DNA of 15,756 nucleotides, taken from a virus. Lineage: Duplodnaviria > Heunggongvirae > Uroviricota > Caudoviricetes. Location of the stretch: positions 1 through 15,756 of the IMG/VR virus record IMGVR_UViG_2778261543_000003; one strand, given 5' to 3'. Position 1 is the stretch's first letter. Each line of letters begins with the position of its first letter. Of this stretch, positions 26 to 15,756 are shown piece after piece. The notes under the pieces are model-generated. The model searched no databases. It had not been told where the DNA came from and was given only the letters and a program-made list of their open reading frames with translations. Both the position numbers and the translations under genes were made by a program.

Positions 26-26
26 T

Positions 27-965: not shown

Positions 966-981
966 GTTTTTCTCCTGTTGA

Positions 982-1530: not shown

Positions 1531-1538
1531 GTAAGTCC

Positions 1539-2054
1539 TTAAATTGCGTGAATAGCGTGACGAGGGAAGGGGAGAGTTACTGGTGCAAAGGGGATATCGT
1601 CGTCAAAATCCATAGGTGGTTCGCTGTGATTTCCCTGCTGCTGAGGTTGCTGTCTTTGTTGCTGACCATTATTTCGCTGAGGTGAAGACTGTTCATTGCC
1701 TCCTTGCTTGCCACCAAGCATTTGCATGGTTCCACCAACGCCCACGATGACTTCGGTAGTGAACCGATCCTGTCCGCTTTGATCCTGCCATTTTCTTGTC
1801 CGCAATTTGCCTTCAAGATAAACCTCAGAGCCTTTTCGCAGATATTCGCTGGCAATTTCTGCCAGTTTCCCGCTCATTACCACGCGGTGCCACTCCGTCT
1901 GCTCCTTTTGCTCTCCAGTTTTCTTATCACGCCATTGTTCTGACGTAGCAACGGTAAGGTTTGCAAATGCCGTTCCTGATGGTGAATATCTGATTTCTGG
2001 ATCATGCCCAAGGCGACCAATAATGATCACCTTATTTACGCCTCTGCTTGCCAT
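1539..2054 (-). CDS. ssb: Single-stranded DNA-binding protein with extended C-terminus
   Basis: OB-fold N-terminus closely resembling E. coli SSB ([33 protein letters not shown]), Gly/Gln-rich linker and acidic tip [11 protein letters not shown], followed by 15 extra residues ([15 protein letters not shown]). Confidence 0.9.
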
Positions 2055-2762
2055 TTATGCCGCCTGTTTTAGTTCGTTAACTCTGATGTTCATTACCTGA
2101 ACGCATTTAGCCTGCGCCTCCTCGTTGCCAGCCATTAATTGCCAGTCACGCTGATAACGCTCGATGAGTTTTTTCTTGTCAGTTTCTGTTGACGCATAAT
2201 CGCTGAAGTCTTTCAGGATTTGTTCGCAGTCAACCGATGGAGATTTCTGGTTGGTATTTTCTGGTGATGGTTTGTTATCTGATGCTGGGATTGCCCATCC
2301 CGGCAGCGATGGAGGGAGCCAGTAAAATCCTGTTCCATCCTTGAGTTTTGCCCTGTGCCATCCCTGCTTTTTATCGAGAGATGTTTGTGCGAAACCTTCC
2401 TCAAGGTTATACAGATACCGACCGATTCCCCATTGAACGGCAGCACGCTTCATTGCACCGGAACGACCACCTTTGACGGCTTCTACCTGCGTGTTTTCAG
2501 CAGCATCCCATTTGGTTACCCATTCGGAATCAATCTTGATTGATATGCCGCATTCAACTCCGCCGTTGTTGGGAATATCGCGGTATTCATTGCGCCATCC
2601 TGCTTTGCCGCAAACATCGTCCAGGCGTTTCATGATTGCCCGGTTCGTGGCATAAGCCAGCACCATAGCCCACACTTTGCCATCGCGTGTTTTACCGCTT
2701 TGCTGTATTCGCCATTCGATATCTTCAGGGCTGAATGGCTCATCGAATTTATTCAAATCCAT
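2055..2762 (-). CDS. Rad52-family single-strand annealing protein (Sak-like recombinase)
   Basis: Motif GGRSGAMKRAAVQWGIGRYLYNL resembles the conserved Rad52/Sak hairpin region; gene is adjacent to SSB and an exonuclease; stop TAA abuts the ssb ATG. Confidence 0.65.
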   Translation of the reverse strand: MDLNKFDEPFSPEDIEWRIQQSGKTRDGKVWAMVLAYATNRAIMKRLDDVCGKAGWRNEYRDIPNNGGVECGISIKIDSEWVTKWDAAENTQVEAVKGGRSGAMKRAAVQWGIGRYLYNLEEGFAQTSLDKKQGWHRAKLKDGTGFYWLPPSLPGWAIPASDNKPSPENTNQKSPSVDCEQILKDFSDYASTETDKKKLIERYQRDWQLMAGNEEAQAKCVQVMNIRVNELKQAA

Positions 2763-2770
2763 AATTCACC

Positions 2771-2941
2771 TCAGAATGGACACGGCCCAAGGAAATAACG
2801 CTGATTTAATACTTCGACTCGGGACAAATTAAGGCATACCCGCATTCCTTCGCGGTCGCCATTATGGCGATACCAGAGAGCTTTCTGCGTGTACATGCGT
2901 CTCTGTAACTTGCTCTCCTTCACTGTGGTTGCAAGTGACAT
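2771..2941 (-). CDS. Small hypothetical protein (56 aa, MSLATTVKESK...)
   Basis: Not in the ORF track (under 60 aa). AAGGAGATATTC-ATG RBS; its stop overlaps the RBS of the Rad52-like gene. Confidence 0.35.
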   Translation of the reverse strand: MSLATTVKESKLQRRMYTQKALWYRHNGDREGMRVCLNLSRVEVLNQRYFLGPCPF

Positions 2942-3020
2942 GAATATCTCCTTCGTTACCGATTAATTCTTTCATCTGACGAATGAATTCTTCGTCTGAC
3001 CAGTTATCTGTAAAACTCAT
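2862..3020 (-). CDS. Small hypothetical protein (52 aa, MSFTDNWSDEEFIRQMKELIGNEGD...)
   Basis: ATGA stop/start overlap with the upstream small ORF; overlaps the 2771-2941 ORF in another frame, so at most one of the two may be complete. Confidence 0.25.
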   Translation of the reverse strand: MSFTDNWSDEEFIRQMKELIGNEGDIHVTCNHSEGEQVTETHVHAESSLVSP

Positions 3021-3169
3021 TTCCTGCGATACCATGGAAGGTTGATAGCTGATTTCATCGCTTTATTTGCTTCAAGCCACATTTTTGAATCACCAATAAA
3101 TCTGGCTATTACTGCTTTGTTCTGTGCAGCACGAAGCATCTGGTGATTGATGGCTATTTCATTGCGCAT
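3017..3169 (-). CDS. Small hypothetical protein (50 aa, MRNEIAINHQMLRAAQNKAVIARFIGDSKMW...)
   Basis: GGAGG 6 nt upstream of the ATG at 3169; occupies the kil-equivalent position just upstream of the recombination genes (positional inference only). Confidence 0.4.
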   Translation of the reverse strand: MRNEIAINHQMLRAAQNKAVIARFIGDSKMWLEANKAMKSAINLPWYRRK

Positions 3170-3288
3170 AACGCCTCCAGTTGTTTCTTTGCTGCTCTGA
3201 TTAATTGTTTAACTCGGCGTGATAATTCAGATTCGTGCGGGTAGAAAGCGGACATGACGCCGCTACCCGCGAGCTGAAAGTGCATCAT
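3154..3288 (-). CDS. Small hypothetical protein (44 aa, MMHFQLAGSGVMSAFYPHESELSRR...)
   Basis: TAAGGAG 7 nt upstream of ATGATG at 3288; the track's longer form (start 3363) has no RBS and would abut the upstream stop. Confidence 0.45.
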   Translation of the reverse strand: MMHFQLAGSGVMSAFYPHESELSRRVKQLIRAAKKQLEALCAMK

Positions 3289-3363
3289 GGGTAACTCCTT
3301 ATATTTGATTGCATAACGAAAACGCCTCGAGTGAAGCGTTATTGGTATGCGGTAAAGCCGCAC

Positions 3364-3732
3364 TCAGGCGGCCTTGATCGTCATATCATCTGAATCAAAT
3401 ATTCCTGATGTATCGATATCGGTAATTTTTATTCCTTCACTACCATCCATTGGAGGCCATCCTTCCTGACCATTTCCATCATTCCAGTCGAACTCACACA
3501 CAACACCATATGCATTTAAGTCGCTTGAAATTGCTATAAGCAGAGCATGTTGCGCCAGCATGATTAATACAGCATTTAATACAGAGCCGTGTTTATTTAG
3601 TCGGTATTCAGAGTCTGACCAGAAATTATTAATCTGGTGAAGTTTTTCCTCTGTCATTACGTCATGGTCGATTTCAATTTCTATTGATGCTTTCCAGTCG
3701 TAATCAATGATGTATTTTTTGATGTTTGACAT
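3364..3732 (-). CDS. Strongly acidic hypothetical protein (122 aa)
   Basis: Clean ORF with GAGGAA upstream; by my count about 22 Asp/Glu against about 8 Lys/Arg; lies between the pL-proximal cassette and the recombination module. Confidence 0.7.
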   Translation of the reverse strand: MSNIKKYIIDYDWKASIEIEIDHDVMTEEKLHQINNFWSDSEYRLNKHGSVLNAVLIMLAQHALLIAISSDLNAYGVVCEFDWNDGNGQEGWPPMDGSEGIKITDIDTSGIFDSDDMTIKAA

Positions 3733-3750
3733 CTATTCATTTCCTCATAG

Positions 3751-3778
3751 ATAAAAAATCGCCCTCACATTGGAGGGC
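3751..3778 (-). terminator. Intrinsic terminator (minus strand) between the AT-rich cassette and the acidic-protein gene
   Basis: Plus-strand ataaaaaatc-GCCCTC-acattg-GAGGGC; on the minus strand a 6-bp GC stem followed by a run of 6 U. Confidence 0.6.
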
Positions 3779-3884
3779 AAAGAAGATTTCCAATAATCAG
3801 AACAAGTCGGCTCCTGTTTAGTTACGAGCGACATTGCTCCGTGTATTCACTCGTTGGAATGAATGCACAGTGCTTATTCGCAGT

Positions 3885-4211
3885 CTACATAATCATTCCG
3901 GTTATTATTACCATTTCAATATCACTATCTTTCATAATGATTGGAGTTGAGTTATCAACTTTACTTTTACTCCATTTTCCTGCATCAGTTTTTACCGCTC
4001 CACAATAAGAAAGCCAATCATTATCACAATGTTCTGGATCGCTGATTCTGACAAGAACACGTGATAGTGCTTTTTCGATACTTTCATCACAATTAGCATT
4101 TGTGTAATTGCCGTGAGACAATTTTAAATCGTTAACTTCATCTTCATTGGCATCAAAAATATAGATTTCAGTCGACTCTGGAACATTTTCATAAACCATT
4201 AAAACTTTCAT
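3885..4211 (-). CDS. Acidic hypothetical protein (108 aa, start MKVLMVYENVPE); second gene of AT-rich cassette
   Basis: Start chosen at the ATG at 4211 (GGGGTAAAA-ATG) because the track's longer start at 4331 overlaps the upstream gene; region is visibly AT-rich. Confidence 0.5.
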   Translation of the reverse strand: MKVLMVYENVPESTEIYIFDANEDEVNDLKLSHGNYTNANCDESIEKALSRVLVRISDPEHCDNDWLSYCGAVKTDAGKWSKSKVDNSTPIIMKDSDIEMVIITGMIM

Positions 4212-4257
4212 TTTTACCCCATATTGTTTATGCCAAAAATAAAGTCGGCCATGCGGC

Positions 4258-4728
4258 CTAGTAGAATACCCAATTTTCTGCTTCTTGGTTGTGTCCAAAG
4301 TTATATTCAATATCTGGTGTTGATGTATCAATATTCTTCATCCCATCAACAAGAGTTGATACAACAGCCAAATCTTGTTTGATTCTCATTAAATGGTATT
4401 TCTTCCGGCGCAATAAACTTTCAATGGCAAGTTTCTTCGTTGGGAATGCAAAAGATCTTTCTGCATTTTTTGCTACTTTCTTAATTGCATATCTATTTCT
4501 CCTTTGTTTCCATTCCTGTAACCACTGATTTGGTGCTGGTTTAAAACCAACAACCCAATGCGCAGGAACCAACCATGCATAATGCTCTGTCTGATGAAAA
4601 GCTATATATTGAAGTGCGAATATTTTTATCCCATCTTCTTCAACTGTCGCCTGGAATCTCCAGAAAACAGGCATTCCATCATGTTCAGTTTCTGATTCAG
4701 GAAAAGGTACGCTCCATGATTTTGTCAT
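4258..4728 (-). CDS. Hypothetical protein (156 aa) translationally coupled to N
   Basis: N stop TGA, then GGTGAGAT, then ATG at 4728; AT-rich relative to N; no family recognised. Confidence 0.7.
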   Translation of the reverse strand: MTKSWSVPFPESETEHDGMPVFWRFQATVEEDGIKIFALQYIAFHQTEHYAWLVPAHWVVGFKPAPNQWLQEWKQRRNRYAIKKVAKNAERSFAFPTKKLAIESLLRRKKYHLMRIKQDLAVVSTLVDGMKNIDTSTPDIEYNFGHNQEAENWVFY

Positions 4729-4736
4729 ATCTCACC

Positions 4737-5036
4737 TCAAATAAGTGGTTTGCTGCCTAATTTCATTTTCTGGCGACCAACACAAGTCACACCCATTTCA
4801 CTGCGTGGCTTGCGGTAGTAAATACGATTCTGTTTACTCTCGACTTCTTCTGCCTTCTTGCAGCGAAGGCTTCCGAGTGATGCTGCTTTGTCTGCTCTGA
4901 CGCAACCAGAGAGCTTTAGCGCATTTTTTCGCGCCAGTCGCTGCTCTTGCATTGCCTGTTCACGTTGAGCCTGTCTGCGTGCTCTGCGGCGATTTCTGGC
5001 GTTATCGTCAGCCAGATATGTAATGACTACTGTCAT
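4737..5036 (-). CDS. N: Antitermination protein N
   Basis: Arg-rich N-terminal motif (DDNARNRRRARRQAQREQ) and C-terminus YYRKPRSEMGVTCVGRQKMKLGSKPLI closely matching the lambda N C-terminus as I recall it; GGAGG 7 nt upstream of the ATG at 5036; nutL lies upstream. Confidence 0.75.
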   Translation of the reverse strand: MTVVITYLADDNARNRRRARRQAQREQAMQEQRLARKNALKLSGCVRADKAASLGSLRCKKAEEVESKQNRIYYRKPRSEMGVTCVGRQKMKLGSKPLI

Positions 5037-5076
5037 GTTGACCTCCGGGAAGGTACACATCCTTGTGTGTCGATGA

Positions 5077-5196
5077 TTATTTGTTTTTGCGTTCCCACAT
5101 CCAGTCATCTACTTCAGACCAGATAGTGAAACCGAAGCAGATGGCGAATGTGGTAACTAAACCACCGAGAATTGGGTTGGTCATGATGTCTAACAT
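5077..5196 (-). CDS. Small predicted membrane peptide (39 aa, MLDIMTNPILGGLVTTFAICFGFTIWSEVDDWMWERKNK) in the N leader
   Basis: Not in the ORF track. GAGGAA 6 nt upstream of ATG; one hydrophobic helix plus a charged Trp-rich tail; lies between the leader inverted repeat and N. Confidence 0.35.
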   Translation of the reverse strand: MLDIMTNPILGGLVTTFAICFGFTIWSEVDDWMWERKNK

Positions 5197-5367
5197 TTTC
5201 TGTTCCTCAGATGATTAGCTTTGGTGGTGTGGTAGGTGGGAGACCCATTTCGACCCGCTTCGTCCGACTTCAATTCGGCAATAGTCCCGCAGGCCTCGCC
5301 GCTTTACGTGCGACATATTCCCGTCCATGAACCCTTCACCACACCCCAAAGCCAACTACTCTTTGGT

Positions 5368-5408
5368 TCCCGCATTTCGGCGGGACAATCCCATCAATGT
5401 TAAAGAGC
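5368..5408 (-). promoter_or_regulatory. nutL (boxA GCTCTTTAA plus boxB hairpin)
   Basis: Minus-strand GGCTCTTTAACA ... TCCCGC-cgaaau-GCGGGA; the same arrangement occurs on the plus strand at 7082-7125; boxA matches the lambda CGCTCTTA consensus. Confidence 0.6.
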
Positions 5409-5454
5409 CTGCCAATCTGTTCCGTTTGGCTACCAGCGTCCTGCTGATGGCTTA

Positions 5455-5496
5455 AAGATAACTTAGGTTATAGGTGTGGTCAATAACCTAATTTAT
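5455..5496 (-). promoter_or_regulatory. pL promoter with operators OL1/OL2
   Basis: Minus-strand TTGACC (5483-5478), 17-nt spacer, TATCTT (5460-5455); operator ATAACTTAGGTTAT at 5458-5471 overlaps the -10 and ATAACCTAATTTAT at 5483-5496 overlaps the -35. Confidence 0.55.
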
Positions 5497-5660
5497 ATTT
5501 TGTGGTAAATAAGTTATAAGTGATGGATAACAAAGGTATTTTATTTTTGTAAATGTTGCTGATTGATTGGTGTTTGAGGGCTTGCGTGCGGGGTGAAGGT
5601 GTTACCTTTGGCTTGATGCTTGTCTATGATGATGATGGGTGATTGGGTGGTGAACGGCAG

Positions 5661-5695
5661 GAAAAGAAAACCCGGCGCTGAGGCCGGGTGTTTTT
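5661..5695 (-). terminator. Intrinsic terminator ending the cI operon (potentially bidirectional)
   Basis: CCCGGC-gctgag-GCCGGG stem-loop flanked by a T-run on the plus strand and an A-run (U-run on the minus strand); starts right after the stop of the 5694-5990 gene. Confidence 0.7.
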
Positions 5696-5990
5696 AGTCT
5701 TTTCTTTTGCTTAGCATTTCGTCGATTTCTAAGTCAATACGATATTGATCTATTGCTTTTCTCTCGTTTGGGGTTGGTATTTTATATTGTTCAATTAGAT
5801 CTGTTGTGTATTTTATTTCATCTAATGTGATTTTTATATCAGAGAGAATCTCTTTTATATCAATTAGATGCTCTTCTTCTTTTGCGCGATTAGAGCTATG
5901 TTCAATCATTTGAGATAGCTTTTTACTAATGCTTAGCAAAACAAAAAGAATGATGATCAAAACAACAACAAAAACTATCAGAAATTCCAT
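5694..5990 (-). CDS. AT-rich single-pass membrane protein with coiled-coil-like C-terminal region, cotranscribed with cI
   Basis: GGAGGGATA-ATG RBS 40 nt downstream of the cI stop; hydrophobic N-terminus EFLIVFVVVLIIILFVLLSI, then a charged, periodic Ile/Leu segment; followed by a terminator. Confidence 0.7.
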   Translation of the reverse strand: MEFLIVFVVVLIIILFVLLSISKKLSQMIEHSSNRAKEEEHLIDIKEILSDIKITLDEIKYTTDLIEQYKIPTPNERKAIDQYRIDLEIDEMLSKRKD

Positions 5991-6030
5991 TATCCCTCCG
6001 CACTTCCGTAAGTCTTCTTCTGATTATCGG

Positions 6031-6738
6031 TTACCAACTATGAGACGACCAGAATACTCTGCCAATAATCCTTACGGTTTCATGAAATTCATCTCTATCC
6101 ATTACTTCATCCGGGTACTCTTCGCGATTTATTGATCTGATTATCACCGATGTAGGGGTGGCGATTAATGTTTTTACTCGTAACAAATCAGACTGGCAAA
6201 TAGCGTAGGTTTTACCATCTCTGATTGTGGTATCTTGCGTGTTAACACCAACAACATCGCCATCGTGAAGCGTTGGTTCCATGCTTTGCCCTACAACCCT
6301 AACTAGCTTGGCTGATCTTTCAGATACTCCCATCTTTTTCAGATAGTGCTTTCTGAAAACCAAAGAGAACTCCGATGATTCCTCTAGCTCGCAGCTACCG
6401 CTTCCAGCTGAAAGCGAAACGTTAAGAAGAGGCAACGCAACAAACTCGTCATCGTTTCTTTTAATGTCTTCCCATACCACAGCTTTTAAAGATGACTCAC
6501 GGACATTGGATGGTTCTTCATGTGCACCATCCCTCATTTCACCAATACCAGAACTAAGCCATTCAGGGCGCACTTTTAAAGCATTGGCTAATTCAACCAT
6601 CTTGCGAGATCCGTTTGTTTTACCGGACGACATCTTCTGTATGGCTGGCTGAGATATTCCAACCATGTCAGCAAGCTGTGATTGTGATACCCCTGCCGAG
6701 CTCATGGCTGCATTTAGTCTTTCTGCGAATGTTTTCAT
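6031..6738 (-). CDS. cI: cI-type repressor (HTH plus S24 LexA-like peptidase domain)
   Basis: HTH SQSQLADMVGISQPAIQKM; S24 signature GQSMEPTLHDGDVVGV and a downstream Lys (LRVKTL). Start taken at MKTF (6738) because the longer track start at 6768 would overlap an operator. Confidence 0.85.
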   Translation of the reverse strand: MKTFAERLNAAMSSAGVSQSQLADMVGISQPAIQKMSSGKTNGSRKMVELANALKVRPEWLSSGIGEMRDGAHEEPSNVRESSLKAVVWEDIKRNDDEFVALPLLNVSLSAGSGSCELEESSEFSLVFRKHYLKKMGVSERSAKLVRVVGQSMEPTLHDGDVVGVNTQDTTIRDGKTYAICQSDLLRVKTLIATPTSVIIRSINREEYPDEVMDRDEFHETVRIIGRVFWSSHSW

Positions 6739-6750
6739 ACCCACAAATCT

Positions 6751-6816
6751 ATAACTACGGTTATCCAAAGTAAAATAACAAAGGTTATTGCTATTTTTTA
6801 TAACTTGAGTTATCTT
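6751..6816 (+). promoter_or_regulatory. OR operator triplet with pR (and divergent pRM) region
   Basis: ATAACTACGGTTAT (6751-6764), ATAACAAAGGTTAT (6775-6788) and ATAACTTGAGTTAT (6800-6813) at 24-25 bp spacing; candidate pR -35 TTGCTA (6788-6793) and -10 TATCTT (6811-6816). Confidence 0.6.
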
Positions 6817-6849
6817 TGGTTATAAGTAATGACCACAAGAGGTATGCTC

Positions 6850-7074
6850 ATGAATTTAGTAATTCAACGAGCCTTGAAAATTGTCGGTAGCCAAAAGCGC
6901 CTTGCCGACAAGTGTGGTGTAACGCAGCCAGCAGTACACAAATGGCTGAAAGGCGGGTTGGTCTCTCCAGAGAAAGTTACCGCCATCGTTAACGCCACTG
7001 GAGGGCAGATCAAGGCTTACGAAATTCGCCCCGATTTGCCACACCTGTTTCCAAAACCGAATCAGGCAGCATAA
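6850..7074 (+). CDS. cro: Cro-like HTH regulator (YdaS-like)
   Basis: First rightward gene after OR; AAGAGG 7 nt upstream of the ATG at 6850; HTH SQKRLADKCGVTQPAVHKWLK; C-terminal YEIRPDLPHLFP. Confidence 0.65.
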   Translation: MNLVIQRALKIVGSQKRLADKCGVTQPAVHKWLKGGLVSPEKVTAIVNATGGQIKAYEIRPDLPHLFPKPNQAA

Positions 7075-7081
7075 GTAACAC

Positions 7082-7125
7082 CGCTCTTTAACAGTCATGG
7101 TCCTCATTCCCGCCGAAATGCGGGA
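7082..7125 (+). promoter_or_regulatory. nutR (boxA CGCTCTTTA plus boxB hairpin)
   Basis: CGCTCTTTAACA then TTCCCGC-cgaaau-GCGGGAA between cro and cII; inverted counterpart of nutL. Confidence 0.6.
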
Positions 7126-7183
7126 ATGCAACGCGCATAAGTTGATGCGCATAACTTCTTATTAGTTAAGGAAATACTTACAT

Positions 7184-7462
7184 ATGCAACTTACAAGTAC
7201 TCGCAAGAAAGCGAATGCAATTACAAGCAACATCCTGAATCGAATTGCTGTACGTGGTCAGCGAAAGGTTGCCGACGCGTTAGGGATTAATGAATCGCAA
7301 ATTTCGCGATGGAAAGACAGCTTCATCCCAAAAATGGGAATGCTTCTGGCTGTTCTTGAATGGGGTGTTGAAGACGAGGAGTTGGCGGAACTGGCTAAGA
7401 AAGTAGCCAGAATGCTGACAAAAGAAAAAGCCCCGAAGAACGGCGAATTCTTCGAGGCCTGA
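7184..7462 (+). CDS. cII: Transcriptional activator cII
   Basis: Strong resemblance to lambda cII as I recall it (ILNRIA, SQISRWK, IPKMGMLLAVLEWGV). Confidence 0.85.
   Translation: MQLTSTRKKANAITSNILNRIAVRGQRKVADALGINESQISRWKDSFIPKMGMLLAVLEWGVEDEELAELAKKVARMLTKEKAPKNGEFFEA
7418..7454 (-). terminator. Minus-strand intrinsic terminator inside the cII 3' end (candidate OOP-like antisense RNA terminator)
   Basis: 7-bp stem CGAAGAA/TTCTTCG (7434-7440 with 7448-7454) followed on the minus strand by GGGCUUUUUCUUUU. Confidence 0.45.
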
Positions 7463-7496
7463 TGTAGAAAGACTGGATCAATCCACAGGAGTAATT

Positions 7497-7658
7497 ATGA
7501 CAAAACGTCGTAAGAAATACCAGGAAAAAGAAGAGATTCGACACCCTGATTCACCTGAGGGATTAGTGGTAGCCGCAGCAAATAACAGGGCGTTCGCAGA
7601 GCGCCTTGTTGGTGTTTACAGACTAGCCAAAGCAGGAGTGAAACATGGGCGTCGTTAA
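7497..7658 (+). CDS. Small basic hypothetical protein (53 aa, MTKRRKKYQEKEEIRHPDSPEG...)
   Basis: AGGAG 5 nt upstream of ATG; its 3' end overlaps the O start by 14 nt; not in the ORF track. Confidence 0.35.
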   Translation: MTKRRKKYQEKEEIRHPDSPEGLVVAAANNRAFAERLVGVYRLAKAGVKHGRR

Positions 7659-8466
7659 GTTAGCTGATTACAGGCCTCAACTGGAGGTCGTGGAGCATCG
7701 CGTGGCAGATACCGAAGATGGTTTCATGCGCGTTGCTAACGAGATTACCGACAGTCTGCTGATGGCTGATTTAACCGTCCGGCAGTTGAAGGTGATGCTC
7801 GCTATCATGCGCAAGACATACGGATTCAATAAGCCGATGGATCGACTCACAAACACGCAGATAGCAGCCATGACAGGTATTCATCACACTCATGTTTGCG
7901 CTGCCAAGCGCCAGCTTATTGAGCGTAAATTCCTCATTGCTGATGGCGTGAAAATCGGAGTGAACAAGGTGGTTTCTCAGTGGATTAGCCAGGACAGCTT
8001 AACATTAGCTAAAACAGCTAATAAAACATTAGCCAAGTCGGCTAATGGGTATAAGCCAAGTCAGCTAAACACAAAAGACAATATACAAAAGACAATAAAT
8101 ACAAATACCCCCTTACCCCCTAACGGGGGCGGCGATGGGCAGGTTAAACCTGAACGTCGCAAGGCAGAACGAATCGACTACGAATCCTTCCTGAACGCCT
8201 ACAACACCGAAGTCGGTGACAGACTTCCGCATGCTGTTGCGGTCAACGAGAAACGCAAACGCCGCCTGAAGAAAATCATCCCGCAACTGAAAACGCCAAA
8301 CGTGGACGGTTTCAGAGCGTATGTCAGGGCGTTTGTGCATCAGGCCAAGCCGTTTTACTTCGGAGACAACGACACGGGCTGGACGGCCGATTTTGATTAC
8401 CTGCTGAGGGAAGATTCGTTAACGGGAGTACGGGAAGGGAAGTTTGCAGACAGGGGGATTGCATGA
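7645..8466 (+). CDS. O: Replication initiation protein O
   Basis: N-terminal domain resembles lambda O ([28 protein letters not shown]); AGGAG RBS; iteron-like repeats inside the linker; ATGA overlap with the downstream helicase. Confidence 0.8.
7990..8105 (+). repeat. Candidate replication origin: iteron-like repeats plus AT-rich tract inside O
   Basis: AGCCAAGTCGGCTAA (8031-8045) and AGCCAAGTCAGCTAA (8054-8068), further AGCTAA motifs at about 10-bp phasing, then an A-rich tract with ACAAAAGACAATA repeated. Confidence 0.45.
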
Positions 8467-9839
8467 GACAGGATATCGAAGCGAGCGTTATCGGTGGCCT
8501 GCTGATTGGTGGATTAACACCAACCGCCAGCGACGTTCTGGCAACGCTGGAGCCGGAAGCGTTTTCAATTCCGCTCTACCGGAAAGCCTTCGAGGTTATC
8601 CGCAAGCAGGCGAGAAACAGAAACCTAATCGACGCGCTGATGGTTGCAGAGGCGTGCGGAGAGGAGCATTTCACGTCAATCCTGATGACCAGCAAGAACT
8701 GCCCGAGTGCCGCAAACCTGAAGGGATATGCTGGAATGGTCGCGGATAACTATCACCGCCGTCTGGTGCTGGAAATCATGGACGAAATGCGTGAACCAAT
8801 TCAGAGCGGAACCATCGACGCATCGAGTCAGGCGATGGACGAGCTGGTAAAGCGTCTTTCAGCCATCAGAAAGCCACGTGACGAGGTAAAACCTGTACGG
8901 TTAGGGGAAATCATCACCGACTACACTGACACGCTTGACAGGCGTCTGAGGAACGGAGAAGAGTCAGATACCCTGAAGACCGGAATCGAAGAACTTGACG
9001 CTATCACCGGAGGGATGAACGCTGAAGACCTGGTGATTATCGCCGCTCGTCCTGGTATGGGGAAAACCGAACTGGCGCTAAAGATTGCCGAAGGTGTTGC
9101 AAGCCGCGTTATTCCTGGTTCTGACGTCCGGCGCGGAGTATTGATTTTCTCGATGGAAATGAGCGCATTGCAGATTGCAGAGCGAAGCATTGCCAACGCC
9201 GGGAGGATGTCGGTTAGCGTACTGCGAAATCCTGCATCGATGGATGACGAGGGCTGGGCACGTGTTGCTAACGGCATGAGTCAGCTTGCAGATTTGGATG
9301 TATGGGTAGTCGATGCCTCGCGGTTATCGGTCGAAGAAATACGCTCAATCGCAGAACGGCACAAACAGGAAAATCCAAACCTGTCACTCATCATGGCGGA
9401 TTATCTTGGCCTGATTGAGAAGCCGAAAGCAGATCGCAACGACCTTGCAATTGCTCACATCTCCGGAAGCCTGAAGGCGATGGCGAAAGACCTGAAAACG
9501 CCTGTTATCTCCCTGAGTCAGCTTTCGCGCGATGTTGAGAAGCGACCAAACAAACGCCCGACAAACGCAGATTTGCGTGATTCAGGAAGCATTGAGCAGG
9601 ACGCAGACTCAATCATCATGCTCTATCGGGAAGCGGTATATGACGAGAACAGTAGCGCCGCGCCATTTGCTGAAATCATTGTGACAAAAAACCGTTTTGG
9701 CTCACTTGGTACGGTTTACCAGCGGTTCTGCAACGGACACTTTGTTGCATGTGACCAGGATGAAGCCAGACAGATTTGCACAGCATCAAATGCACCTGCT
9801 GCGCGTGGCAGACGATATGCACAAGGGGCTGACGTATGA
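8463..9839 (+). CDS. DnaB-family replicative DNA helicase
   Basis: DnaB-like N-terminal domain followed by a RecA-type ATPase core with Walker [10 protein letters not shown]; sits directly after O. Confidence 0.9.
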
Positions 9840-9916
9840 CCATCTACATCACTGAGCTGATAGCAGGCCTGCTGGTAATCGCAGGCCTTTTTATTTGGGG
9901 GAGAGGGAAGTCATGA
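9836..9916 (+). CDS. Micro-ORF for a 26-aa hydrophobic peptide ([26 protein letters not shown])
   Basis: ATGA overlaps at both ends (with the helicase stop and the next gene start); could equally be chance. Confidence 0.25.
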
Positions 9917-10095
9917 ATCTGGACGAGCAAGATGCACAAACTATTAGCTCATACATAAGGGCATCAAGACCAGATTACAAAGGTCCGGTATTCGTAGATT
10001 TATCTCGCCTTGAGGAGATTTACATGTGGGAAGCAAAGCTACGTACGCATCTTTTTATTCGTAAGATGACTAGCAACATTACAAAACCAATGTAA
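9913..10095 (+). CDS. Hypothetical protein (60 aa, start MNLDEQ)
   Basis: GGGGGAGAGGGAAG upstream of the internal ATG at 9913; nin-region position. Confidence 0.5.
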   Translation: MNLDEQDAQTISSYIRASRPDYKGPVFVDLSRLEEIYMWEAKLRTHLFIRKMTSNITKPM

Positions 10096-10109
10096 CTGGA
10101 GAGGTGAAT

Positions 10110-10325
10110 ATGAGCACACTCGCAGACCTTATTCATGCCGATATGGCGGAAGATGGAGCAAGGCGTAATAGGTACTGGAAATCATCAAGCCTTCCAGTTT
10201 GTGAAAGATTCAACCACAGGCCAAAACCAAAACGTAGCCGACGAGACAAAGTGTTGAAAAAACTCATGCAAATTAACATGGCTGGTTTTGTCAGATTCGT
10301 GAGTGAAACGACTAACGGGGATTGA
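10110..10325 (+). CDS. Hypothetical basic protein (71 aa)
   Basis: GGAGAGG RBS upstream; same-strand tight packing. Confidence 0.5.
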   Translation: MSTLADLIHADMAEDGARRNRYWKSSSLPVCERFNHRPKPKRSRRDKVLKKLMQINMAGFVRFVSETTNGD

Positions 10326-10326
10326 T

Positions 10327-10593
10327 ATGGACGAATCAAGAAAGCAGTTTGAAGAATGGTTTGAAAATTACACCGGATGTGATCCTAAAAATAAAATATA
10401 CGCCAATATGGTTGAGATGTATTGGCAAGCGTGGCAGGCATCGCGAGCAGCTATCGAGATTGAGTGTCCTGGAAAAAGAGAGCGTGAGGCATTTTCTACC
10501 GATTTCGAGGATGGGGTCACATTTGGTTATAACGACGCAATTAGTGAATGCGAAGGACGGATTCGCGCTGCTGGAGTCAAAGTGAAGGAGTGA
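10327..10593 (+). CDS. Hypothetical protein (88 aa, start MDESRKQFEEW)
   Basis: Start 1 nt after the previous stop; the alternative frame 10322-10585 looks less protein-like. Confidence 0.5.
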   Translation: MDESRKQFEEWFENYTGCDPKNKIYANMVEMYWQAWQASRAAIEIECPGKREREAFSTDFEDGVTFGYNDAISECEGRIRAAGVKVKE

Positions 10594-10595
10594 CG

Positions 10596-11006
10596 ATGAA
10601 GCAAACAATCTTCCTCCGAACTAAGCAACAACAGCAAGCCGCAATCAACGCCATCCTCGCAACACCACTCGATAAAGACAAGCCAGTCACCATCCGCATT
10701 ACTGACTACAAGCGCAACCTTGACCAGAACGCAAAATTTCACGCGATGGTCGCAGATATCGCTAGGCAAGTTCAGTGGCGCGATAAATGGTTAAAACCAG
10801 AACAATGGAAGGTTTTGTTGATCAGCGGTCATGCAGTGGCAACAAAGCAGGAAGCTGATGTTTTGCCCGGGCTTGAAGGCGAATACGTCAACATTCGCGA
10901 AAGCAGCGCGCAGATGAGTGTGAAGCGTATGGCAAGCCTGATTGAGTACACAACAGCCTGGGCTATTGGTCAGGGTGTCAGATTTACTGACAGGAGGTAT
11001 GAATGA
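10596..11006 (+). CDS. ninB: NinB-family recombination protein (Orf-like)
   Basis: AAGGAG RBS upstream of MKQTIF; pattern LDQN.K ... W..KW...E.WK resembles lambda NinB as recalled; followed by NinE/F/G. Confidence 0.75.
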
Positions 11007-11185
11007 GACGACAGCGACGAAGTTTCACCGACATAATCTGCGAAAACTGCAAATACCTTCCAACGAAACGCTCCAGAAATAAACCCAAGCCAATCCCAAA
11101 AGAATCTGACGTAAAAACCTTCAATTACACGGCTCACCTGTGGGATATCCGGTGGCTAAGACATCGTGCGAGGAAAACAAGGTGA
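11003..11185 (+). CDS. ninE: NinE
   Basis: 60-aa protein [23 protein letters not shown]... matching my recollection of lambda NinE; ATGA overlap with the ninB stop. Confidence 0.65.
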
Positions 11186-11352
11186 TTGACCAAAATCGAA
11201 GTTACGAACAAGAAAGTGTCGAGCGAGCTTTAACGTGCGCTAACTGCGGTCAGAAGCTGCATGTGCTGGAAGTTCACGTGTGTGAGCACTGCTGTGCAGA
11301 ATTGATGAGCGATCCGAATAGCTCAATGCACGAGGAAGAAGACGATGGCTAA
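11182..11352 (+). CDS. ninF: NinF (GTG start)
   Basis: [37 protein letters not shown] matches lambda NinF as recalled; GTGA overlap with the ninE stop. Confidence 0.6.
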
Positions 11353-11950
11353 ACCAGCTCGAAGGAAATGCAAAATATGCAAGGAATGGTTTCACCCGGC
11401 ATTCTCAAATCAGTGGTGGTGCTGCCCGGAACACGGAACTCAATTAGCACTCGAACGACGAAGCAAAGAACGCGAAAAAGCGGAAAAAGCAGCAGAGAAG
11501 AAACGACGACGAGAGGAGCAGAAACAGAAAGATAAACTGAAGATTCGAAAACTCGCCTTAAAGCCCCGCAGTTACTGGATTAAACAAGCCCAACAAGCCG
11601 TAAACGCCTTCATCAGAGAAAGAGACCGCGACTTACCATGTATCTCGTGCGGAACGCTCACGTCTGCTCAGTGGGATGCCGGACATTACCGGACAACTGC
11701 TGCGGCACCTCAACTCCGGTTTGATGAGCGCAATATTCACAAGCAATGCGTGGTATGCAACCAGTACAAAAGCGGAAACCTCGTTCCGTATCGTGTCGAA
11801 CTGATTAATCGCATCGGGCAGGAAGCAGTAGAGGAAATCGAATCAAACCATAGCCGCCATCGCTGGACTGTCGAAGAGTGCAAGGCGATCAAGGCAGAGT
11901 ACCAACAGAAACTCAAAGACCTGCGAAACAGCAGAAGTGAGGCCGCATGA
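11345..11950 (+). CDS. ninG: NinG (Rap) recombination protein
   Basis: Near-identity over long stretches to lambda NinG as recalled ([43 protein letters not shown]). Confidence 0.8.
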
Positions 11951-11997
11951 CGTTCTCAGTAAAAACCATTCCAGATCACAAGGGAGAAGCCGCATGA
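11947..11997 (+). pseudogene. ninH: ninH remnant (16 codons, [16 protein letters not shown]) bridging ninG and Q
   Basis: First 10 residues match the lambda NinH start as recalled, then the frame ends after 6 more codons; ATGA overlaps with both ninG and Q. Confidence 0.4.
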
Positions 11998-12512
11998 GCA
12001 TAAGAGAACTAAACCTCACCAAAGAACAGCATGAGTGGCTGAATGGCTGGCTTGAACTGTGGGGCGCATGGGTTTATTCAGGTCGTCTGGAAAAGCGCAT
12101 GAGCAGCGTAATAGCGAAGTTCATGGAGAGCGTAGAGCCGGGAAGAGTTATGACAAGGCCAATGTGCAATGATGATGATGGAATGTTGATTTCTCAGGTC
12201 GTCGATTCCGTCATGTGCATTGACAAGAAAGCCTTTGGCATCCTCCTCAGCTACTACGCTCATGGTTCATCTAAGCGAGCAATTGCATCCTACTATCACG
12301 CGACTGCAAAGCCACGCAAGATGTGTGGACGTGGTGGCGAGGGATGGAGAAAACCTTCACTGGCAACCTGTAGAAACGAAATTGACGACATCCTGAAAGC
12401 GTCGTTATTTGTTTTGTACCAGCCAATGCAAAATGCTTTCAAAATGCGCAAACGTGTTGAGAAAGTTAAGCATGTTGCTGTTAAAAGCCTTGACATGCAA
12501 TTATCCATTTAG
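11994..12512 (+). CDS. Q: Late-gene antiterminator Q-like protein (non-lambda Q type)
   Basis: Occupies the Q position immediately after the nin genes and before the pR'-like promoter, tRNAs and lysis genes; contains Cys/His-rich segments; family assignment from memory only. Confidence 0.6.
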   Translation: MSIRELNLTKEQHEWLNGWLELWGAWVYSGRLEKRMSSVIAKFMESVEPGRVMTRPMCNDDDGMLISQVVDSVMCIDKKAFGILLSYYAHGSSKRAIASYYHATAKPRKMCGRGGEGWRKPSLATCRNEIDDILKASLFVLYQPMQNAFKMRKRVEKVKHVAVKSLDMQLSI

Positions 12513-12519
12513 CCATAAT
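12490..12519 (+). promoter_or_regulatory. Candidate late promoter pR' (overlapping the Q 3' end)
   Basis: Perfect -35 TTGACA (12490-12495), 18-nt spacer, -10 CATAAT (12514-12519). Confidence 0.45.
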
Positions 12520-12533
12520 TAGAAGGTAAGCTG

Positions 12534-12571
12534 CCGTTAGTGACTCTTAAGTTGCAACGGTGGCTTTTTTT
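12534..12571 (+). terminator. Possible tR'-like terminator (non-canonical)
   Basis: CCGTT ... AACGG stem with a large 17-nt loop followed by a run of 7 T; structure is weak. Confidence 0.3.
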
Positions 12572-12575
12572 ATTT

Positions 12576-12650
12576 GGGTCAGTCGTATAAAGGTCATTAC
12601 GGAAGGCTGTTAACCTTCTTATCGTGGTTCGAGTCAACGCTGTCCCGCCA
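12576..12650 (+). tRNA. tRNA-Asn-like (anticodon GUU), possibly degenerate
   Basis: Cloverleaf foldable by hand: anticodon arm GAAGG-CTGTTAA-CCTTC, T-loop TTCGAGT, 3' CCA; but one acceptor mismatch, one T-stem mismatch and an odd D-arm. Confidence 0.4.
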
Positions 12651-12655
12651 AATAT

Positions 12656-12731
12656 GCTGGTTTAGCTCCAATGGTAGAGCAGTCGCCTTGTAAGCGAATG
12701 GGTAGCGGTTCAAGTCCGTTAACCAGCACCA
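12656..12731 (+). tRNA. tRNA-Thr (anticodon UGU)
   Basis: 76 nt; perfect 7-bp acceptor stem GCTGGTT/AACCAGC, D-stem GCTC/GAGC with GG in loop, anticodon loop CTTGTAA, T-loop TTCAAGT, 3' ACCA. Confidence 0.75.
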
Positions 12732-12974
12732 TAACTGAGCCGTAGCCACTGGCTATCCTGAATTCATCAGTGATAGTTATGCTGCGGCCTTCTGCACATG
12801 ACCTTCGTGAAAGCGGGTGGCAAGAGGCTGCGCTAACAACCTCCTGCCGTTTTGCCCGTGCATATCGGTCACGAACAAATCTGATTACTAAACACAGTAT
12901 CCTGGATTTGTTCTATCAGTAATCGACTTTATTCCTAACTAAATAGAGCAAATCCCCTTATTTGGGGGTAAGAC

Positions 12975-13298
12975 ATGAAGATGCCAGAAAAACATGACCT
13001 GTTAGCCGCCATTCTCGCGGCAAAGGAACAAGGCATCGGGGCAATCCTTGCGTTTGCAATGGCGTACCTTCGCGGCAGATATAATGGCGGTGCGTTTACA
13101 AAAACAGTAATCGACGCAACGATGTGCGCCATTATCGCCTGGTTCATTCGTGACCTTCTCGACTTCGCCGGACTAAGTAGCAATCTCGCTTATATAACGA
13201 GCGTGTTCATCGGCTACATCGGTACTGACTCGATTGGTTCGCTTATCAAACGCTTCGCTGCTAAAAAAGCCGGAGTAGAAGATGGTGGAAATCAATAA
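12975..13298 (+). CDS. S: Holin (lambda S type, dual-start MKM)
   Basis: Essentially the lambda S sequence as recalled ([39 protein letters not shown]...). Confidence 0.9.
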
Positions 13299-13758
13299 TC
13301 AACGTAAGGCGTTCCTCGATATGCTGGCGTGGTCAGAGGGAACTGATAACGGACGACAGAAAACCAGAAATCATGGTTATGACGTCATTGTTGGCGGAGA
13401 GCTATTCACTGATTACTCCGATCACCCTCGCAAACTTGTCACGCTAAACCCCAAACTCAAATCAACAGCCGCCGGACGTTACCAGCTTCTTTCCCGTTGG
13501 TGGGATGCCTATCGTAAGCAGCTTGGCCTGAAAGATTTCTCTCCGAAAAGCCAGGACGCTGTGGCATTGCAGCAGATTAAAGAGCGTGGTGCTTTACCGA
13601 TGATTGATCGCGGTGATATCCGTCAGGCAATCGACCGCTGCAGCAATATCTGGGCTTCACTGCCGGGTGCTGGTTATGGCCAGTTCGAGCATAAGGCTGA
13701 CAGCCTGATTGCAAAATTCAAAGAGGCTGGCGGAGCGGTCAGAGAGATTGAGGTATGA
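13282..13758 (+). CDS. R: Endolysin (lambda R-type lytic transglycosylase)
   Basis: Matches lambda R as recalled ([39 protein letters not shown]). Confidence 0.9.
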
Positions 13759-14222
13759 GCAGAGTAACCGCGATTATCTCCGCTCTGGTTATCTGCATCA
13801 TCGTCTGTCTGTCATGGGCTGTTAATCATTACCGTGATAACGCCATCGCCTACAAAGAGCAGCGCGATAACAAAGCCAGTGAACTGGAGAAGGCGAACGC
13901 GATCATTACTGACATGCATCAGCGTCAGCGTGATGTTGCTGCGCTCGATGCTAAATACACGAAGGAGTTAGCTGATGCGAAAGCTGAAAATGATGCTCTT
14001 CGGCGCAAGCTTGATAATGGTGGCAGGGTGCTCGTCAAAGGAAAATGCCCTGTGCCATCCTCAGCCGAAGCCTCCAGCGCCTCCGGCATGGGCAATGATG
14101 CCACCGTCGAACTCTCTCCAGTTGCTGGACGAAACGTTCTCGGTATCCGGGGCGGAATTATCCGCGACCAAACAGCACTGAGAACGCTTCAGGGATACAT
14201 AAGGACGCAATGCCTTCGATGA
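13755..14222 (+). CDS. Rz: Rz (inner-membrane spanin)
   Basis: N-terminal half matches lambda Rz as recalled ([31 protein letters not shown]...); C-terminal half diverges. Confidence 0.85.
13975..14181 (+). CDS. Rz1: Rz1 (outer-membrane lipoprotein spanin) embedded in Rz in the +1 frame
   Basis: Signal peptide ending in a lipobox-like VAGCSS followed by a Pro-rich segment ([11 protein letters not shown]), as in lambda Rz1. Confidence 0.7.
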
Positions 14223-14362
14223 TAGCGATAATTTTACTCATCATCCTTCACATCTGGCTCTGTAGACAGGGTGGTGATCACTTCTGGAGTGAATCCAGAT
14301 TAAACATCTCATTGCTGATGCTTGATATTGAGCATCTGGCGCGCGGTAAGGGGCTGCGTTGA
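14210..14362 (+). CDS. Small hydrophobic ORF (50 aa, [22 protein letters not shown]...) overlapping the Rz stop
   Basis: AAGGA 5 nt upstream of ATG; hydrophobic N-terminus; not in the ORF track. Confidence 0.3.
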
Positions 14363-14396
14363 GATAAGAGCCAGTCATCACAAACACCAGGATTTA

Positions 14397-14420
14397 GCCT
14401 CGCATTTGCGGGGCTTTTTT
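14397..14420 (+). terminator. Intrinsic terminator downstream of the lysis cassette
   Basis: GCCTCGC-attt-GCGGGGC stem (with one G-U pair) followed by TTTTTT. Confidence 0.6.
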
Positions 14421-14568
14421 ACATCTGCAGTAAACCGCGCATCGCAGCGCGTAACAATCCCGAGTCTTTCAGAAAGCTGAGCCTGAGAACTGCCGTATAT
14501 GGTGGCGACCATCTCGGGGACGGCTTTTCTGTGCGAACAGGCTCATCTTTCTAAAAGGTAAAGACGCA

Positions 14569-15111
14569 ATGAACTACCCAACCGTTGTTAACGATATAGA
14601 TTTCAGAGACCTAATTTTTGTAGCAAACAACGATCCGGTTACAGATTCTTTTATGGTGGCAAAAGCATTTGGAAAGCTGCCGAAGAACGTAGTTCGCGAC
14701 ATTGAGCGAACCATAGAAGCTTGCCCTCCTGAGTTTGATACAAAGCTCAACTTTGAGCTTTGCTATAAAAACAATGAGTTACAGAATGGTAAGCCGCAAA
14801 AATTCTACCGTCTCCGCAAGGATGGGTTGATGCTTTTGGTTATGTCCTACACCAAAAAAGAAGCAATGCGTATCAAAATTGCTTACATCAACGCATTTAA
14901 CTGGATGTACGCCATGCTTCAGGTTGGTCATCGTCAATTTGAAGAAGAGAGAAATGCCGTAATGCTGGAGTACATGAAAGAGAAGGATGTTGCCAGCATG
15001 TCAGGTCGCCTGCTAAATCGCTGGGGCAAAATTAAGAAGCCACAGTTGCTGGCTAGAATTGAACGCCTTGAACAGCACGGGCAAACCGTAATCCCCGGAC
15101 TCATCAATTAA
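14569..15111 (+). CDS. Rha-family phage regulatory protein
   Basis: N-terminal pattern V..FGK...NV.RDIE ... NFE ... Y.L.KDG.MLLVM..T...A...K.AYINAFN typical of the Rha domain as I recall it. Confidence 0.65.
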   Translation: MNYPTVVNDIDFRDLIFVANNDPVTDSFMVAKAFGKLPKNVVRDIERTIEACPPEFDTKLNFELCYKNNELQNGKPQKFYRLRKDGLMLLVMSYTKKEAMRIKIAYINAFNWMYAMLQVGHRQFEEERNAVMLEYMKEKDVASMSGRLLNRWGKIKKPQLLARIERLEQHGQTVIPGLIN

Positions 15112-15330
15112 CGGCAGTACCGCGAAACAACCCAAGCCAGTAAGTGGGGAAATAACACTGGCAGCCACTGAAAGATGAACCTCCAGCCTTATGGCAAAAA
15201 AGATTCTTTGTGGTGGCGGACTGATGGAAAGACATCGGATAGAATAAAACAGTGGCTAGGGTAGCTCCCGAAAAGCGGAATCGTCACCGCCAGCCACTGA
15301 ATCTATGACGAACAACTAGACGAGGTTGAT

Positions 15331-15573
15331 ATGAGTGAAATTGATAAAATAATAAATGGTACATGTAACTTTCAATCAATGCCGCCAGGTAGTTATGTAA
15401 AACAATGTAGTGAAATAGTTAATGGTCAGCTTGTAATGTCAAATGCAGGACGTGGAGTTTCTACGGATGAAAAAAAATCAATAAATGAAGCCCTATTAAG
15501 CATCAATGTTTTTGACTTGTTTCGCCCATCTTGGGTTATTTTGCAAAATAGTAGTCAATTCCCACATTATTGA
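15331..15573 (+). CDS. AT-rich hypothetical protein (80 aa)
   Basis: GAGG 6 nt upstream of ATG; markedly AT-rich by eye; no family recognised. Confidence 0.45.
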   Translation: MSEIDKIINGTCNFQSMPPGSYVKQCSEIVNGQLVMSNAGRGVSTDEKKSINEALLSINVFDLFRPSWVILQNSSQFPHY

Positions 15574-15756
15574 TAAATTAATTAATAAATTGGTCGCTAA
15601 GTCGGCCTTTTTTATTGCCATCACAAAAGCCATTCCTTACTGAGTGGCTTTGATAATGGCTTATACCCTACACGGGATAACTTAACTGATATCCCTTTTA
15701 AGGAAGGTGCGAATAAGCAGGTCATTTCTTCCCAAGCTGACTCGCTGATTAAAATT

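Follow-up and report, generated by a model that had tools for sequence, protein, structure and literature searches.

Between the Q antiterminator gene and the lysis genes of a 15,756-nucleotide stretch of Caudoviricetes DNA (IMG/VR record IMGVR_UViG_2778261543_000003, positions 1 to 15,756; hereafter the window, by which we mean the whole stretch analysed) lie a late promoter, an intrinsic terminator and two tandem transfer RNA (tRNA) genes. Taken as a whole, this arrangement is probably best explained as a Q-controlled late leader that carries a replacement tRNA-Thr resistant to OLD, a nuclease of P2 prophages. We are likewise fairly confident that the late operon which begins here, with its 5′ end in the window, belongs to a temperate phage of P22-like/lambdoid type whose nearest relatives are Sf6, HK446 and CUS-3. 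The region itself is already known as the late control region of the phage-21/Sf6 type, annotated since phage 21 (1991) and Sf6 (2004). The features that carry the argument are the following:

11994-12512, plus strand: Q antiterminator gene of the phage-21 Q type, encoding 172 amino acids from the ATG at 11994.

12490-12519, plus strand: late promoter pR′, with −35 TTGACA at 12490-12495, an 18-nt spacer and −10 CATAAT at 12514-12519.

12499-12514, plus strand: putative Q-binding element (QBE) in the promoter spacer, consisting of two direct 8-bp repeats, AATTATCC and ATTTAGCC.

12526-12533, plus strand: transcription start (inferred, G12526) followed at 12527-12533 by the sigma-dependent pause element TAAGCTG, both transferred from phage 21.

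12528-12571, plus strand: intrinsic terminator tR′, a hairpin at 12528-12566 with a T7 run at 12565-12571.

12576-12650, plus strand: tRNA-Asn, anticodon GUU, discriminator G73, CCA encoded (ARAGORN, Rfam).

12656-12731, plus strand: tRNA-Thr, anticodon UGU, G1-C72 and C2-G71, CCA encoded (ARAGORN, Rfam).

The tRNA-Thr gene is called by ARAGORN and scores 61.5 bits with the Rfam tRNA model (E = 2e-11, threshold 29). Together with the tRNA-Asn, from which it is separated by a 5-nt spacer (AATAT), it makes up the total of two tRNAs that ARAGORN calls in the whole window, and the two adjacent genes proposed by an earlier sequence-only reading of this DNA are thus both recognised, as Asn(GUU) and Thr(UGU). 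Threonine identity in E. coli is set by G1-C72, C2-G71, G35 and U36, and all four elements are present. The core nucleotides are also in place save for C14 instead of A14, and C14 is conserved in this phage lineage. The clean fold that had been claimed for this tRNA stands apart from this unusual C14 and a G27·A43 mismatch on top of the anticodon stem; position 27:43 is unpaired in 16 of 19 family variants and is therefore a conserved lineage trait. About 120 related copies from IMG/VR loci were examined, among which the window's sequence is the majority allele (69 copies called by ARAGORN in related loci). Across the 19 distinct tRNA-Thr sequences 95% of the cells are paired and nine pairs have changed on both sides, a result that 0 of 500 shuffles come close to, with compensatory doubles such as G5-C68 to U5-A68 and A49-U65 to G49-C65. 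Sliding the pairing partners by 1-3 columns gives far lower values, for this tRNA as for the tRNA-Asn.

All 76 nucleotides of the window's tRNA-Thr are identical to those of phage 21 tRNA-Thr21 and of the HK446 tRNA-Thr (76/76), and published tests of the identical molecule in trans bear directly on what it can do. The P2 prophage nuclease OLD destroys the host tRNA-Thr(UGU), encoded by thrU, and phage tRNA-Thr(UGU) rescues by replacement, for which its UGU anticodon is needed (PMC12445682). tRNA-Thr21 gives cells protection from OLD plus Gam and is in part resistant to cleavage; its anticodon stem is shorter, and it carries the changes C28U/G42A, and resistance requires the altered CNG motif and the shortened stem together (PMC12445682). 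The window's tRNA-Thr has UCG at 28-30 and CGA at 40-42, where thrU has CUG/CAG, and its unpaired G27·A43 leaves four pairs in the stem. Judged by sequence, it has both of the alterations that OLD resistance requires. The HK446 tRNA-Thr supplied in trans restored plating of the OLD-sensitive phages HK97, HK542 and Bas34 (bioRxiv 10.64898/2026.07.10.737580, July 2026). The window also encodes, between erf and kil, a 57-amino-acid open reading frame (ORF; 2862-3035, minus strand) that is 92% identical over 52 amino acids to HK75 Gp33 and 88% identical to HK446 Gp33 (tblastn), and Gp33 is sufficient to trigger OLD (bioRxiv 10.64898/2026.07.10.737580). By homology, the genome appears to hold an OLD trigger as well as an OLD-resistant tRNA-Thr.

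The control elements upstream of the tRNAs are equally recognisable. The promoter that the sequence-only reading placed over the 3′ end of Q is borne out: pR′ matches the consensus at 11 of 12 positions and is the top site among those reported by a promoter scan of 11900-13300, its −35 hexamer lies within the 3′ end of the Q ORF (the stop codon TAG is 12510-12512), and in the alignment its two hexamers occupy exactly the columns annotated as −35 and −10 in phage 21 pR′. The Sf6 record labels the same stretch P R′. The Q protein matches the Pfam family Phage_antitermQ with 90 bits, and its match to the solved Q21 structures 6jnx and 6p18 covers residues 1-162 (E = 1.5e-90), showing near-identity to about residue 100 and divergence beyond it, in the DNA-contacting C-terminal part. 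The putative QBE repeats occupy the same alignment columns as the phage 21 QBE (ATTGAGCA/AATGAGCA). The phage 21 sequence is not found at those homologous columns, where the window instead has AATTATCC/ATTTAGCC, the L/Sf6 variant. This repeat pair was proposed as the QBE of L/Sf6-type Q in the phage L genome paper, which regards the Q family as shared and its specificity as probably different (PMC8022706). Since the repeats differ and the Q C-terminus has diverged correspondingly, the sequences point to an architecture shared between the window and phage 21 and a Q/QBE specificity that is probably different.

Downstream of the −10, the start and pause positions were moved over by alignment from the phage 21 annotation (L128:900; 901-907), and the pause element TAAGCTG is identical in the two sequences. 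The hairpin and T-run reported earlier after the promoter fold as a strong terminator at −20.2 kcal/mol (z = −4.6, 0 of 200 shuffles as good), and tR′ shares 100% of its sequence with the late terminator of phage 21, which is annotated after Guo et al. 1991 and whose coordinates, when transferred, fall at 12528-12575. A consensus terminator scan missed tR′, a result that was set aside given the fold and the identity to phage 21. Apart from the sequence of the repeats, the features of a Q21-type region are found here, namely a Q21-family gene that ends at the promoter, a pause element, and a terminator about 45 nt downstream of the start.

Phage 21 (OL657228; Guo, Kainz and Roberts 1991) has the same order of Q, pR′, QBE, pause element, tR′, tRNA-Asn, tRNA-Thr and holin, and its genome record annotates the −35, QBE, −10, start, pause element, terminator and both tRNAs with literature references. 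The succession of late promoter, Q-controlled terminator, phage tRNAs and lysis genes described in the sequence-only reading thus agrees with curated annotation in both phage 21 and Sf6. Over 12527-12745 only two positions differ between phage 21 and the window, 12636 in the tRNA-Asn (C62 in phage 21, A62 in the window) and 12653 in the spacer. Upstream of the start, however, only the −35 and the geometry are common to both: the phage 21 −10 is AACACT, whereas the window's CATAAT is closer to consensus, the repeats are ATTGAGCA/AATGAGCA rather than AATTATCC/ATTTAGCC, and the Q proteins (structures, Yin et al. 2019) are near-identical in the N-terminal half and differ in the part that contacts DNA. 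The holins differ as well, S21 being a pinholin and the window's holin lambda-S-like.

From these elements a course of events can be proposed. pR′ would fire constitutively from about 12526, and the polymerase would pause at the sigma-dependent TAAGCTG. Without Q, transcription would stop at tR′ and give a leader RNA of roughly 45 nt; accumulated Q would load at the repeats in the promoter spacer and yield a terminator-resistant polymerase, which would then transcribe the two tRNAs, a 243-nt stretch, and the holin, endolysin and spanin genes. As general knowledge of tRNA maturation would have it, host enzymes (RNase P, 3′ trimming) would cut both tRNAs from the head of the late transcript. The tRNA-Asn gene starts 4 nt past the T-run, which leaves no room for a promoter of its own, and the tRNAs are therefore expected to be late and Q-dependent, barring read-through of tR′. 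The tRNA-Thr reads ACA, a codon for which E. coli relies on one minor tRNA only, that of thrU, and it would serve as a nuclease-resistant stand-in that sustains late translation once the thrU tRNA is destroyed; otherwise, it would contribute added ACA decoding. The tRNA-Asn would most likely act in a similar way as a stand-in for tRNA-Asn(GUU). Nothing relevant turned up when the literature was searched for data on how these tRNAs are expressed in lysogens of BTP1 or others.

The tRNA-Asn calls for a closer look, as it had been described as possibly degenerate or specialised, with mismatches in the acceptor and T stems and an atypical D-arm. ARAGORN calls the gene, and the Rfam tRNA model (RF00005) scores it at 47.7 bits (E = 1e-7, threshold 29). 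All core nucleotides are present (U8, A14, G18 and G19, U33, the T-loop UUC, a purine at 57, A58 and the 3′ CCA). According to Li, Pelka and Schulman in 1993, asparagine identity in E. coli reportedly resides in the anticodon GUU and the discriminator G73. Those elements are likewise present here, as G34 U35 U36 and G73, followed by CCA. When drawn as a cloverleaf, the sequence does have the two mismatches, of which the acceptor-stem one is U4·U69 and the T-stem one G52·A62; the D-arm, by contrast with the earlier description, is ordinary, with three pairs plus U13·U22, and with A14, G18, G19 and A21 kept. Among 17 distinct sequences of the family 90% of the cells are paired and nine pairs have changed on both sides, which 0 of 500 shuffles reach. 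U4·U69 recurs in 14 of the 17 variants, among them a copy from a Klebsiella phage where both neighbouring pairs, 6:67 and 7:66, show covariation, and is therefore a family feature and not decay. To judge from the alignment, with its conserved mismatch and covarying helices, the tRNA-Asn is not degenerate as a family.

The window's own copy is a different matter, and for it the suspicion of degeneracy holds up better. It agrees with the copies of phage 21, Sf6 and HK446 at 74/75 positions, the difference being the C62-to-A change at 12636, which breaks G52-C62, the neighbour of the universally conserved G53-C61. Position 62 is C in 118 of 118 other related copies from the IMG/VR loci, and an exact search of IMG/VR for the A62 allele gave no match, so the change is treated as private to the window. 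With A62 the predicted cloverleaf goes from −19.1 to −12.5 kcal/mol, a loss of about 6.6, and the minimum-energy fold is no longer a cloverleaf. It may be that this copy of the tRNA-Asn is impaired, or that the A arose as an error in sequencing.

The anticodon arm of the tRNA-Asn suggests what the family could be for. tRNA-Asn(GUU) is a secondary target of AriB, the nuclease of PARIS, and has been a substrate in OLD kinetics experiments. The window's tRNA-Asn lacks the paired CNG motif, having AAG/CUU against CGG/CCG in the host. For AriB, the determinant is U36AAUC; a U39-to-A change abolishes cleavage of tRNA-Lys, D-loop U16 contributes, and further unmapped contacts matter. Over positions 36-41 the window's tRNA-Thr reads UAAGCG and its tRNA-Asn UAACCU, against UAAUCA in host thrU, UAAUCC in asnT and UAAUCA in lysV. 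The tRNA-Thr thus has G39, G41 and A16 and the tRNA-Asn has C39 and U41, to be read with the further unmapped contacts of AriB in mind. A likeness can be drawn to the T5 tRNA variants that neutralise PARIS (PMC11464382, PMC12409363), which include the same Thr(UGU) and Asn(GUU) anticodons, and U39 is lost in both sets; the T5 sequences are unrelated, however, T5 is a virulent phage that makes about 24 tRNAs from their own promoters, and the window's cassette is without tRNA-Lys(UUU). The motif losses in the tRNA-Asn fit a resistant replacement tRNA, and a role in counter-defence is plausible on this comparison.

A larger proposal is that the Asn-Thr pair forms a cassette of two tRNAs dedicated to countering the Toprim tRNA nucleases of P2-like prophages, OLD and PARIS-AriB, with the tRNA-Asn also resistant to cleavage and the pair a swappable module at the junction of pR′-tR′. 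We advance this tentatively, and would sooner bet against it than for it. In relatives, the junction may instead hold Gly(UCC), or thrU-like tRNA-Thr alleles with weakened anticodon stems.

Several points weigh against reading the cassette as a means of surviving these nucleases. The published protection tests used plasmid-expressed tRNA, outside the native Q-dependent context, and one tRNA-Thr alone failed to rescue lambda or to relieve OLD toxicity in recB-deficient cells. Late, Q-dependent expression would follow the triggering of OLD by early genes. The authors of the preprint suggest that the HK446 tRNA may be an adaptation to temperate life and not an anti-OLD device, given the presence of the Oad2 inhibitor in that phage (bioRxiv 10.64898/2026.07.10.737580). 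The main PARIS target, tRNA-Lys(UUU), is not represented in the cassette, and the window's tRNA-Asn bears its private destabilising mutation. Resistance features are also not universal in such pairs, since the tRNA-Thr of P1 and of an SSU5-like plasmid keep CUG/CAG and a 5-bp anticodon stem, and the P1 tRNA-Asn keeps UAAUCA. Finally, Gp33 is encoded in only 5 of the 14 related loci whose upstream sequence extends to 10 kb or more, a count made without a control set, and no linkage between cassette and trigger is demonstrated by it.

The same cassette recurs elsewhere. Positions 12400-13000 match 184 phage records, at 97-99% identity for relatives that include Sf6, BTP1, SPN9CC, CurroJimenez_Bas106 and HF4s. 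The full cassette is present in 361 of 5426 complete E. coli genomes, and any match in 1042 of 5426. The Sf6 region of genes 59-61 (AF547987; Casjens et al. 2004) is 97-98% identical and has the same lambda-S-like holin; it differs at single points, with C62 in the tRNA-Asn and one T fewer in the terminator run. In Sf6, BTP1, SPN9CC, SfI and CurroJimenez_Bas106 the Q type, promoter repeats, terminator and both tRNAs are as in the window, and Sf6-type records annotate P R′, qut, t R′, tRNA-Asn and tRNA-Thr, in Sf6 with the wording 'similar to phage 21'.

Two further relatives bear on the mobility of the cassette. In HK446 the 156-nt Asn-Thr cassette differs from the window's only at 12636, yet the Q, pR′ and tR′ that precede it are of the lambda type, and the joint lies at the terminator T-run. 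HK446 also encodes homologs of Gp33 and Abc2, as the window does, and has the OLD inhibitor Oad2 (gp27); the window itself contains no Oad2 homolog, though the genome could have one past the left end of the window. HK75, on the other hand, shares Q, pR′, tR′ and the holin with the window, and in the place of the tRNAs it has about 200 nt of unrelated sequence. From these two arrangements, we conclude that the late operon carries the cassette at its head as a module that is mobile and optional. The HK75 replacement segment (L002 972-1185) ends in what looks like a tRNA T-arm and the 3′ half of an acceptor (GCCGGTTCGATTCCGGCCGCCACAACC); ARAGORN finds no tRNA in it, and an Rfam tmRNA-like match is sub-threshold (20 bits vs 47).

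More distant layouts share the position or the pair. Stx phages such as 933W (ileZ-argN-argO) carry tRNA genes at the same position, between Q and the lysis/stx genes, and their isoacceptors differ from those of the window. On Stx-phage tRNAs the SfI paper cites Schmidt et al. 1997 (PMC3636060). P1 and an SSU5-like plasmid have the same adjacent order of Asn(GUU) and Thr(UGU) in another genomic context: the pair lies at 2473-2720 of the 108-kb E. coli plasmid p1448_4 (L005), where a tRNA-Ser follows, and at 625-778 in P1 (L008). For the plasmid pair, identity to the window's cassette is about 76% in the part that matches; for the P1 tRNA-Thr it is about 80%. Phage L (L006, 781-852), ST64T and their relatives have as second tRNA a 72-nt sequence labelled tRNA-Leu(UAA), which ARAGORN does not call; its ends are those of the window's tRNA-Thr and its middle is different, which suggests an internally replaced derivative. 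Six IMG/VR loci (L016, L037, L081, L082, L092 and L110) have a chimeric second tRNA after the tRNA-Asn, with a 5′ part of the phage 21 type and a thrU-like remainder. In five of these six, the 3′ strand of the anticodon stem is UCAUC, leaving two mismatches and one lost CNG motif, and there is no ARAGORN call. The chimera is followed by a tRNA-Gly(UCC) very similar to host glyT, and Gly(UCC) has been reported as another preferred OLD target.

One alternative is plain codon supplementation, in which the tRNAs would serve the ACA and Asn codons of an AT-richer phage with no link to defence. ACA is used 16.5 times per 1000 codons in the window's ORFs and 5.7 times in a 49-kb E. coli sample, about a threefold difference, and makes up 36% of Thr codons against 11%; the late genes of related loci have 12.2 per 1000, about twice the host value. 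The same bias towards ACA is described in the SfI paper (PMC3636060), the frequency of Asn codons is about 1.5 times that in the host, and 24 of 25 Asn codons in the phage L coat gene are AAC (PMC8022706). A comparison with host codon usage, which the sequence-only reading had proposed for the late genes, gives an enrichment of ACA. That enrichment is not specific to carriers, however: HK75, which has no such tRNAs, is equally enriched, with 16.2 per 1000 in early and 11.1 in late genes, and codon use therefore does not separate carriers from this non-carrier. ACA use also peaks in early genes, at 17.7 per 1000, and their translation precedes the time at which a Q-dependent tRNA would be made. 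The AAC/AAT ratio is no different from that of the host, and the SfI authors found no bias that explains the tRNA-Asn, whose significance they called unclear (PMC3636060). Nor does supplementation explain why the anticodon stems differ from the host's exactly at the nuclease determinants. As the sole explanation we consider it unlikely, but it is compatible with an OLD-resistant replacement tRNA-Thr and the two need not exclude each other.

The remaining alternatives concern the origin or the state of the tRNAs. That the window's tRNA-Asn is a damaged, non-functional allele or the product of a sequencing error, in an otherwise functional family, is about as doubtful; the broken G52-C62 pair, the invariant C in all other copies, the missing A allele and the lost folding energy speak for it, as does the ceiling of 99.4% identity among the matches sampled from complete E. 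coli genomes. Yet the gene is still called by ARAGORN and still well above the Rfam threshold, some natural tRNAs tolerate single T-stem mismatches, and the fold energies take no account of modifications or tertiary contacts. Far less probable is the idea that prophage integration disrupts a host tRNA gene and that the two tRNAs make good the loss. Related phages do integrate into tRNA genes, the HK446 attP resembles thrW, and the preprint authors raise the idea for HK446 (bioRxiv 10.64898/2026.07.10.737580). UGU and GUU are not the anticodons of the integration targets named in the papers used here, though, which are thrW for P22-like phages and HK446 and argU for epsilon34; such phages rebuild the target tRNA gene on integrating, a cassette behind tR′ in the late operon is in the wrong place for expression in a lysogen, and the same cassette occurs in phages with different integration modules. 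We give almost no credence to the last alternative, that host tRNA genes were captured by misassembly or remain from an attachment site, an artefact that the sequence-only reading had held open. Exchange with the host does occur at this site in some related loci, where the 3′ part of the tRNA-Thr is that of thrU and a glyT-like tRNA-Gly follows, but nothing of the kind is seen in the window, whose tRNAs are identical to thrU at 55 of 78 columns (about 70%) and to asnT at 47 of 78 (60%). This low identity, the patchy occurrence among E. coli genomes given above, and the same position of the cassette between Q and holin in the isolated phages Sf6, phage 21, HK446 and BTP1 refute the artefact. 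Of all these explanations, the Q-controlled late leader with an OLD-resistant tRNA-Thr is the one we retain.

The features around the cassette complete the picture of the late operon and the early-left region. Beyond the tRNAs lie:

12732-12974, plus strand: untranslated stretch of 243 nt from the tRNA-Thr to the holin start, common to Sf6 and the tRNA-less HK75.

12975-13298, plus strand: holin/antiholin gene with the dual start ATG AAG ATG (Met-Lys-Met), PHROG holin/anti-holin, E = 1e-40.

Within the first of these, a 50-amino-acid ORF (12770-12922, plus strand) matches phrog_22751, a PHROG family of no known function, with E = 4e-27. The holin is the first protein-coding gene of the late operon, and the corresponding Sf6 genes 60 and 61 are annotated as lambda S107/S105-like. 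A CCCC...GGGG hairpin (12950-12983) stands directly upstream of the dual start, and the two together resemble lambda S107/S105, where an upstream structure sets the ratio of starts. Further downstream, the Rfam int-alpA RNA (RF02996) matches 15249-15311 on the plus strand with 42 bits (threshold 35.8), and just beyond it an 80-amino-acid ORF (15331-15573) matched no PHROG or Pfam family. On the other side of the window, the left-most ORF (27-515, minus strand) encodes an Ead/Ea22-like protein (PF13935), and the early-left region contains an Erf-type recombination module with Abc2 at 669-965 (minus strand), 97% identical to HK446 Abc2. Abc2, which is anti-RecBCD, was considered as a link to OLD and rejected, as the OLD paper reports that it is no trigger (PMC12445682).

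As a sequence feature, the layout described here adds nothing new, since it is found in hundreds of phage and prophage records. Its value lies in offering a clean, natural tRNA of a temperate phage whose selective rationale has recently become testable, the identical tRNA-Thr having been shown in 2025-2026 to substitute for the host tRNA that P2 OLD destroys. If the tRNA-Asn is nuclease-resistant too, small temperate phages would carry minimal, targeted sets of tRNAs for warfare between prophages, and not for codon matching.

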